The notes: a model not told the origin generated them from the letters alone. DNA of 64,000 nucleotides from a phage (GCA_031520405.1 GCA_031520405.1_4842.1); one strand, 5' to 3'; shown: positions 7,342 to 7,419, counted from the stretch's first letter. A program made the numbers and translations.

Positions 7342-7419
7342 CAACTTTGATGGCTCTGGTACTAAAGATCCCGCGTCACCCATAGACATGGTTTATAAAA
7401 TCCAGAGCCATCAAAGTTG
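7342..7419. repeat. perfect 18-bp inverted repeat with 42-nt spacer
   Basis: 7342-7359 CAACTTTGATGGCTCTGG is the exact reverse complement of 7402-7419. Confidence 0.9.

Follow-up and report, generated by a model that had tools for sequence, protein, structure and literature searches.

The long inverted repeat at positions 7342-7419 almost certainly represents an RNA helix inside a structured noncoding RNA, as judged from comparative sequence evidence. The window (the whole 64,000-nt stretch of DNA that was analysed) is by sequence a Kuttervirus-like phage of the Ackermannviridae, 99% identical to Kuttervirus genomes such as those of Salmonella phage pSK20 and Escherichia phage KEP4. In most Ackermannviridae the hairpin is usually, according to sequence alignments, the 5′ arm of a conserved structured RNA of ~300 nt (7434->7138). 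The explanation that best accounts for the observations as a whole, and that we consider probable, is that a minus-strand hairpin forms one arm of this RNA and acts as a putative processing or stability element.

The left arm of the repeat, CAACTTTGATGGCTCTGG (7342-7359), matches the reverse complement of 7402-7419 at every position. The original prediction of a perfect 18-bp inverted repeat with a 42-nt spacer is exact in both coordinates and in the spacer. When the repeat is lengthened imperfectly, the arms extend to 25 nt (7335-7359 and 7402-7426) with 88% complementarity. An analytic estimate gives ~2.8 × 10⁻⁴ perfect 18-bp inverted repeats with spacers of ≤300 nt by chance in 64 kb, and with about 3 × 10⁻⁴ such repeats expected, the description of the repeat as far beyond chance holds as well. 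The stem comprises 18 Watson-Crick and two wobble pairs in a contiguous run, or up to 24 pairs if a single U-U mismatch is allowed, and the hairpin has a fold energy of −53 kcal/mol. Folding-energy z scores relative to shuffled sequences are −6.6 for the minus strand and −6.3 for the plus strand, and none of 200 shuffles equals either value. A search for the arms elsewhere in the window, which had been proposed as a check, found no recurrence except for one match with two mismatches at 3280-3297, which is located within a long ORF and whose minus strand reads in the same sense as the arm.

Relatives of the element were collected from annotated genomes of Kuttervirus, Agtrevirus, Taipeivirus and Limestonevirus, supplemented by contigs from IMG/VR, a single metagenome contig and, subsequently, Serratia phage 3M. 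An 18-mer scan of metagenomes yielded 45 loci, one of which is a true homolog (L076) and the others chance matches. Among 15 distinct variants from five Ackermannviridae lineages, 98.1% of the cells of the 18-pair stem are paired, and compensatory double changes are present in eight of the 18 pairs. None of 500 shuffles attains the observed value on any of five measures of covariation, and only 30-42% of cells pair when the stem partners are slid by 1-3 columns. Comparative alignment had been named at the outset as the analysis that could overturn the reading of the repeat; the arms are conserved in relatives and covary.

The strand test on 14 variants is decisive. When read as the minus strand, the stems contain 233 Watson-Crick, 14 G-U and three mismatched cells, whereas the plus-strand reading gives 233, two and 15, respectively. 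One-sided changes in an arm are tolerated solely as G-U pairs on the minus strand. The combination of both-strand symmetry and fixed half-site spacing that characterizes a DNA palindrome, operator or cruciform is absent, with the spacer ranging from 10 to 58 nt, and a dimeric DNA-binding site fits poorly because the distance between the arms is so variable. From the minus-strand G-U bias and the range of spacing, therefore, the repeat is evidently an RNA helix transcribed from the tRNA strand, rather than a DNA cruciform or operator. Among the options first offered for the repeat, a long hairpin RNA is thus strongly supported by covariation and by the strand-specific G-U bias, while this bias and the variable spacing speak against a cruciform or a protein-binding site.

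A consensus fold for the whole unit was derived with RNAalifold from 25 distinct full-length copies (Table 1). It includes 70 pairs, 16 of which show compensatory changes, with seven of these 16 in the long hairpin. Overall, 99.0% of 1,747 cells pair and 91 cells are doubly changed; the covariation score is attained by none of 500 shuffles, and slid controls pair at 29-40%. In this fold, the small 5′ hairpin H0, the long hairpin and the closing stem P1 create a three-way junction. The hairpin module (7441->7125) is 77-92% identical across genera and carries long invariant blocks, and the segments that hold the neighbouring ORF (9479-10048) match other genera at 70-83% identity. The flanks upstream of the unit differ among lineages, and the edges of the unit are the edges of inter-genus homology. 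Serratia phage 3M, a distant relative, exhibits new compensatory changes in P1 (GUACUCAACC/GGUUGAGUAC) and P2 (UUCACAUG/CAUGUGAA).

Table 1. Coordinates and supporting evidence for features of the RNA region in the window.
Feature	Position	Strand	Evidence or description
Conserved unit, extent	7125-7441	-	Homology edges between genera (BLAST boundaries 7125/7129/7138 to 7441)
H0, small 5′ hairpin	7419-7434	-	7433-7429 pairs with 7423-7419
Hairpin 5′ arm	7402-7419	-	RNA sense CAACUUUGAUGGCUCUGG; pairs with 7342-7359; covariation
Loop	7360-7401	-	42 nt; unrelated versions in relatives
Loop motif	7375-7384	-	UAUGGGUGAC, consensus about UrUGGrYGrC; read from alignments
Hairpin 3′ arm	7342-7359	-	RNA sense CCAGAGCCAUCAAAGUUG; covariation
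3′ domain	7138-7343	-	Closing stem P1, sub-hairpin P2 and six further helices
P1 closing stem	7343-7333 with 7148-7138	-	RNAalifold
P2 sub-hairpin	7287-7332	-	RNAalifold
Hairpin I3	7798-7933	-	22-nt arms, 92-nt loop
Hairpin I4	8080-8212	-	Follows directly on the '...GCUCCA' that ends the tmRNA-like region
T-arm-like hairpin of tmRNA-like region	~8222-8238	-	Downstream, then '...GCUCCA'
tmRNA-like tag frame	8530-8562	-	ANDNTFLAVA, then two stop codons
Hairpin I5	8614-8696	-	G-U excess on minus strand
tRNA-Met(CAU)	6943-7018	-	ARAGORN; downstream of the RNA unit
tRNA-Asn	6454-6529	-	ARAGORN
tRNA-Ser	5698-5786	-	ARAGORN
Fourth tRNA	5609-5694	-	Rfam only (48.7 bits), missed by ARAGORN; 'tRNA-OTHER' in pSK20
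Intrinsic terminator	5362-5384 (5384->5362)	-	Strong; 3′ of the tRNAs, closes the minus-strand RNA/tRNA unit

The two halves of the long stem evolve differently. The basal nine pairs (CAACUUUGA/UCAAAGUUG) are nearly invariant, with one or two covarying, and the distal nine change freely through covariation. The loop has been swapped out several times among lineages: the Kuttervirus version has 42 nt, those of Agtrevirus and Taipeivirus have ~38 nt, two further lineages have loops of 54-58 nt, and the loop of Limestonevirus has 10 nt. Every long version of the loop keeps a motif of ~10 nt (UAUGGGUGAC, UUGUGGAUGAC or CUGUGGACGG) and is otherwise unrelated in sequence. Stem length is steady at 17-20 bp with loops of 38-58 nt; the exception is Limestonevirus (~14 bp), whose phages have deleted the loop and its motif and have retained the base of the stem. 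The H0 helix is 96% paired with double changes in two pairs, and it overlaps the base of the long stem by about 2-6 nt (the CAACU segment), such that the two compete and alternative pairings can form.

In Serratia phage 3M, the homologous hairpin is located ~250 nt upstream of the core rather than beside it. Its arms match the Klebsiella-phage type at 14 of 18 positions, and the remaining positions are compensated. Because 3M retains the hairpin at this distance from the core, the hairpin thus appears to be a unit of selection in its own right, beyond the core fold. The presence of this homologous hairpin also led us to reject the notion that 3M lacks the hairpin and carries a tRNA-like element instead; covariance models do not support a tRNA-like label for the element between the hairpin and the core.

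Separate from its place in the unit, P2 (~50 nt, with an invariant loop, GCCCGUAUCCCnGUnUGGUUAAGAC, and a covarying stem) also occurs alone between tRNA-Thr and tRNA-Asn in Klebsiella phages of the Stephanstirmvirinae type, at 1501-1549 of phage KP13-26 (L084) and at ~5578-5604 of a second genome (L086). On these sequence grounds, P2 seems to be a mobile RNA motif carried in phage tRNA clusters.

The unit is a structured noncoding RNA element of the phage tRNA cluster that falls outside the curated families tested. Positions 7100-7460 gave no match to any curated family of Rfam 15 at gathering thresholds (including tRNA, tmRNA, RNase P, GOLLD, ROOL, riboswitches and ribozymes), and at E ≤ 10 the same segment returned microRNA-hairpin and frameshift-site noise alone. 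An RNase P RNA-like core was considered for GGAAAGCCCUGG, CACAGAAG and GGGAUAAAGGGU, which seemed to resemble conserved regions of RNase P, and was rejected when a search of 361 nt returned no RNase P match at E ≤ 10. Likewise, an origin from the host was rejected, as the hairpin unit has no match in 5,426 E. coli genomes, where the tmRNA-like piece described below is the only one that matches. ORFs that span the hairpin vary in strand, frame and length among nine genomes with none conserved, and a protein-coding role was therefore set aside; the indels in the loop are not multiples of three. The unit is situated where non-tRNA stable RNAs would be sought, within a phage tRNA cluster and on the tRNA strand. 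No description of the hairpin or of this RNA region was found in publications on Ackermannviridae and Kuttervirus, and it is possible, albeit rather unlikely, that the hairpin marks a family of ~300-nt structured RNAs without prior description.

Roughly 4 kb around the repeat is devoid of long ORFs. Specifically, the repeat lies in an ORF-poor stretch of 2.4 kb between tRNA-Met and ORF 9479-10048, which in the minus-strand sense is upstream of tRNA-Met, and all tRNAs of the window are on the minus strand. In most relatives this stretch is unannotated or carries small, scattered 'hypothetical' CDSs that vary by record. The flanking proteins belong to PHROG families of unknown function and have no relevant Pfam domain. 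The terminator that closes the cluster is annotated as such in Marshall and KWBSE43-6.

Several other features of this region were observed. The homologous tRNA(CAU) from Serratia phage 3M, taken as the query, shares 82-84% identity with a sequence of Stx-converting phages, which in two of those phages is annotated as ileZ or tRNA-Ile, and the annotation of FEC14 lists a tRNA-Ile in the region and no tRNA-Met. Because of the ileZ-like homologs and the FEC14 annotation, the 'tRNA-Met' of the window may be a tRNA-Ile2 that reads AUA. The spacer that separates the RNA unit from tRNA-Met contains a perfect 22-nt palindrome (7087-7108). Among relatives, the RNA region carries insertions of free-standing HNH homing endonuclease genes at varied points, including between tRNA-Met and the hairpin unit in Marshall (L013, 2020-2433) and beside hairpin I5 in KN2-1 (L009, 3973-4533); SS3, SS9 and STP07 also carry HNH genes in the region. 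Among the tRNA genes, non-tRNA blocks within 5821-6320 show 87-99% identity between genera, with re-ordering or duplication in Klebsiella phages, and these may be further conserved RNAs. Finally, a 36-nt piece at 7466-7501 (RNA sense CCAGCCUCGUUUGGUCCGAGCGAUAGAGGACAAG) is kept at 97% identity in Klebsiella and Serratia phages, and its distance to the hairpin unit differs among genera. A dispersed repeat or promoter motif was rejected, as neither the arms nor this piece recur in the window; because it is unique there, the 36-nt piece is not a recurring promoter.

Of the five best inverted repeats in the window, four are found within 1.4 kb (7335-7426, 7798-7933, 8080-8212 and 8614-8696). The three neighbouring hairpins, I3, I4 and I5, have arms of 22-24 nt and loops of 39-92 nt. 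I3 shows compensatory changes between Salmonella and Klebsiella phages, with seven G-U pairs on the minus strand versus two on the plus strand. I5 likewise has compensatory changes, and its G-U counts are 25 versus zero; for I4 they are eight on each strand and uninformative. The four hairpin modules have no detectable sequence similarity to one another, and paralogy was rejected. BLAST comparison with other genera reveals the noncoding stretch to be a mosaic of discrete modules that are variably present and re-ordered, and several module edges coincide with long hairpins. The hairpin of interest thus appears from these comparisons to be one case of a repeated design in which duplexes of 22-24 pairs are placed along a multi-RNA region. 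The original prediction was correct with regard to the hairpin and included neither the larger structured RNA in the tRNA cluster nor these sister hairpins.

Approximately 1.1 kb from the hairpin and on the same strand is a tmRNA-like element of ~170 nt (8448-8616), which may deserve more attention than the hairpin itself. About 390 records match a query with the 2.4-kb stretch at just 60-80% identity and, among the matches listed, all those outside Ackermannviridae (Felixounavirus, T1-like siphoviruses, Schitoviridae and phage 7-11) fall on this element, which by sequence is apparently common to hundreds of unrelated phages. Unannotated DNA in 137 E. coli genomes matches it too, and the element mostly resides inside or beside tRNA clusters in the orientation of the cluster. 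The element includes a tag frame in the style of tmRNA, preceded by an A-rich AUAA box, and the tag ANDNTFLAVA in the window can be compared with ANDENYALAA in E. coli. Tags found elsewhere are ANDNVFLAVA, ANDDVVLMAA, ANDNAFRVAA, ANDNAYLAVA and ANDSEVLMAA, and codon variation is synonymous. Rfam tmRNA models give colinear matches to the tag region and the 3′ T-arm that are far below threshold, ARAGORN calls no tmRNA, and a 5′ acceptor strand was not identified. No published description of the element was found in the literature searched. Nearby, a degenerate tRNA-like element (8342-8408, minus strand) has a perfect T-arm (GAAGG-UUCGAGU-CCUUC) and a weak match to tRNA-Sec (16 bits), and is not called by ARAGORN.

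Presumably, transcription of the region yields a single minus-strand precursor, or a small number of them, ending at the terminator, with the unit co-transcribed with the tRNAs. The tRNAs would be freed by RNase P, which cleaves the 5′ ends of tRNAs, and by the usual 3′ enzymes, and the RNase P cut at the 5′ end of tRNA-Met would make, or help to make, the 3′ end of the unit. P1 and the first base of tRNA-Met(CAU) are ~110 nt apart in the window and ~8 nt apart in SKML-39, IME250, L017, L023 and L076, such that in these five relatives RNase P would form the 3′ end of the unit. The near-perfect duplex of ~20 bp would serve as a double-strand-specific processing and/or stabilizing element. The likeliest agent would be host RNase III, which might part the hairpin RNA from the upstream modules of a polycistronic precursor.

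We propose RNase III-type processing as the specific role of the hairpin only tentatively and hold it to be somewhat short of probable. An RNase III site is preferred because the long duplexes sit between conserved modules, because length and pairing are conserved far above loop content, and because a perfect 20-bp duplex is unlikely to evade RNase III in an enterobacterial host. Counting against this role, the enzyme is selective in vivo and has position-specific base-pair preferences (proximal, middle and distal boxes, and G-C between the cuts), and its double cleavage leaves 2-nt 3′ overhangs. The stem also offers the intramolecular double-stranded RNA of about two helical turns that such a site requires, and its length fits the ~22 bp of double-stranded RNA that RNase III accommodates when it cuts intramolecular stems (PMC6212723).

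By analogy of function, the hairpin most resembles the RNase III stems of polycistronic phage and rRNA precursors. Such stems are found in the early transcripts of phage T7 and bracket 16S and 23S rRNA, where, as here, an intramolecular duplex of approximately two turns lies between units of one transcript and pairing is maintained while loop content is largely irrelevant. However, classical T7 sites have internal loops, whereas the stem here is perfect and its cleavage is putative. By analogy of context, the closest parallels to the unit are the stable non-tRNA RNAs found in the tRNA cluster of T4 and the large RNAs GOLLD and ROOL. The T4 cluster holds 'species 1' and 'species 2' (rnaC/rnaD), which are also noncoding RNAs that share a strand with the phage tRNA genes around them and are probably freed by the tRNA-processing machinery. 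The hairpin unit is about twice as long as these RNAs and is likened to them by context, and we know of no counterpart of the long perfect hairpin in T4. GOLLD and ROOL are similarly large, covariation-supported structured RNAs near phage tRNA genes. However, at ~580-800 nt they are longer than the ~300-nt unit, their hosts and phage families differ, and each is a single large RNA as opposed to the mosaic of separate modules found here; neither is matched in Rfam searches with E limits of 5 (5000-10000) or 10 (7100-7460).

A different reading, unlikely but deserving of serious consideration, is that the hairpin serves as an architectural arm that stays uncleaved within a functional RNA of ~300 nt, where it could offer a phage or host RNA-binding protein a platform or make an RNA-RNA contact. 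The near-invariant sequence of the basal nine pairs and the persistence of the UrUGGrYGrC motif through loop replacement would then be recognition elements. Indeed, a generic RNase III site needs conservation of neither a basal sequence nor a loop motif, and the hairpin has both, which suggests recognition of specific sequences by a protein or an RNA rather than of a generic duplex. Conservation of H0 upstream of the stem would similarly be unexpected if the stem were merely cut away, and the predicted junction of H0, hairpin and P1 would suit an architectural role no less than cleavage. However, Limestonevirus phages keep the base of the stem without the loop and motif, and the displaced hairpin of 3M indicates that the hairpin need not hold a set three-dimensional position relative to the core. 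Moreover, no RNA-binding protein is recognized among the neighbouring ORFs, and a perfect 20-bp duplex is unusual in an RNA that remains uncleaved in an RNase III-proficient host. Processing might instead release an arm or the loop as a small regulatory RNA, a role that we judge improbable. RNAs of microRNA size have been reported from some phages, the shape of the hairpin is suitable, its invariant basal arm could serve as a seed, and the sole Rfam matches are to models of microRNA precursors (mir-3119 and others). Yet the resemblance to these precursors consists of the hairpin shape and a chance 12-base run (AACUUUGAUGGC), and the score of 28.5 bits against a gathering threshold of 80, from a model that matches both strands, reflects this shape; we expect no biological relationship. 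The distal half of the arm varies freely by covariation, counter to a fixed mature sequence, and no complementary target was found, the single two-mismatch match in the window being in the arm's own sense.

The remaining explanations invoke DNA-level functions or transcription termination. A cruciform, palindromic protein site, replication or packaging signal, or physical genome end is very improbable, although the basal half-sites are invariant and four GenBank records from one laboratory begin, finish or have a junction exactly at the arms. These records, MT074475 (dinky), MT074474 (aagejoakim), MT074470 (heyday) and NC_049501 (allotria), break at window positions 7359/7403, with the 42-nt spacer missing. 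A DNA element predicts symmetry and no strand bias in G-U pairs, in contrast to the 14 versus two observed, and its half-sites would not be expected to stand 10-58 nt apart. Furthermore, ~225 other records run straight through the hairpin. The ends of the dinky record are the two arms with the spacer lost, and aagejoakim joins window position 4410 to 7403 without microhomology, thereby dropping ~3 kb that includes all tRNAs and a structural (tail-knob-like) gene; these are signatures of a break in an assembly graph rather than of a terminus. The four breaks are probably assembly artefacts that result from the inverted repeat, and a physical genome end or packaging site was rejected on the basis of their single source, the lost spacer in dinky and the one 3-kb chimeric join. 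The geometry and the assemblies that break at the arms would also fit an invertible switch in which the 42-bp spacer flips between the repeats, but we regard this as the least credible reading of all. At the level of consensus genomes, a flipped spacer is seen in none of 270 matching phage records (best full-length identity to the flipped query, 87.6%), no recombinase is adjacent, and 42 bp is very short for recombinase-mediated inversion. Nor is the hairpin at all likely to be a terminator or attenuator. Its high stability and the competition of H0 and the stem base for CAACU would be in keeping with such a role, but no U-tract follows the hairpin on either strand, the terminator scan lists no site there, a loop of 42 nt is unusual in an intrinsic terminator, and the unit's real terminator lies downstream of the tRNAs.

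Two records of phages labelled with Gram-positive hosts also contain these enterobacterial-phage sequences. The hairpin unit is present at 98.8% identity in OR844942 (Enterococcus phage Efm 3-10), and GU169904 (Staphylococcus phage SA1) holds the tmRNA-like element; both may reflect contamination or mislabelling.

On a practical level, the hairpin breaks genome assemblies, and annotators place spurious small CDSs over it. Ackermannviridae are widely isolated as agents against Salmonella, E. coli O157, Klebsiella and Dickeya. Should the long stems prove to be processing signals, they would define the ends of several RNAs and make these experimentally accessible. Phage tRNA clusters are commonly annotated as tRNAs separated by empty spacers, and the spacer examined here is under strong RNA-structural selection. 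It is conceivable, though we consider it doubtful, that the 'empty' 2.4-kb stretch is an operon of distinct conserved RNAs, each bounded by a ~20-bp double-stranded stem, and includes a divergent tmRNA-like RNA common to hundreds of unrelated enterobacterial phages. If this is true, these phages would carry a toolkit of translation-related or host-RNA-mimicking RNAs beside their tRNAs, and a mixed punctuation by RNase III and RNase P would release them.
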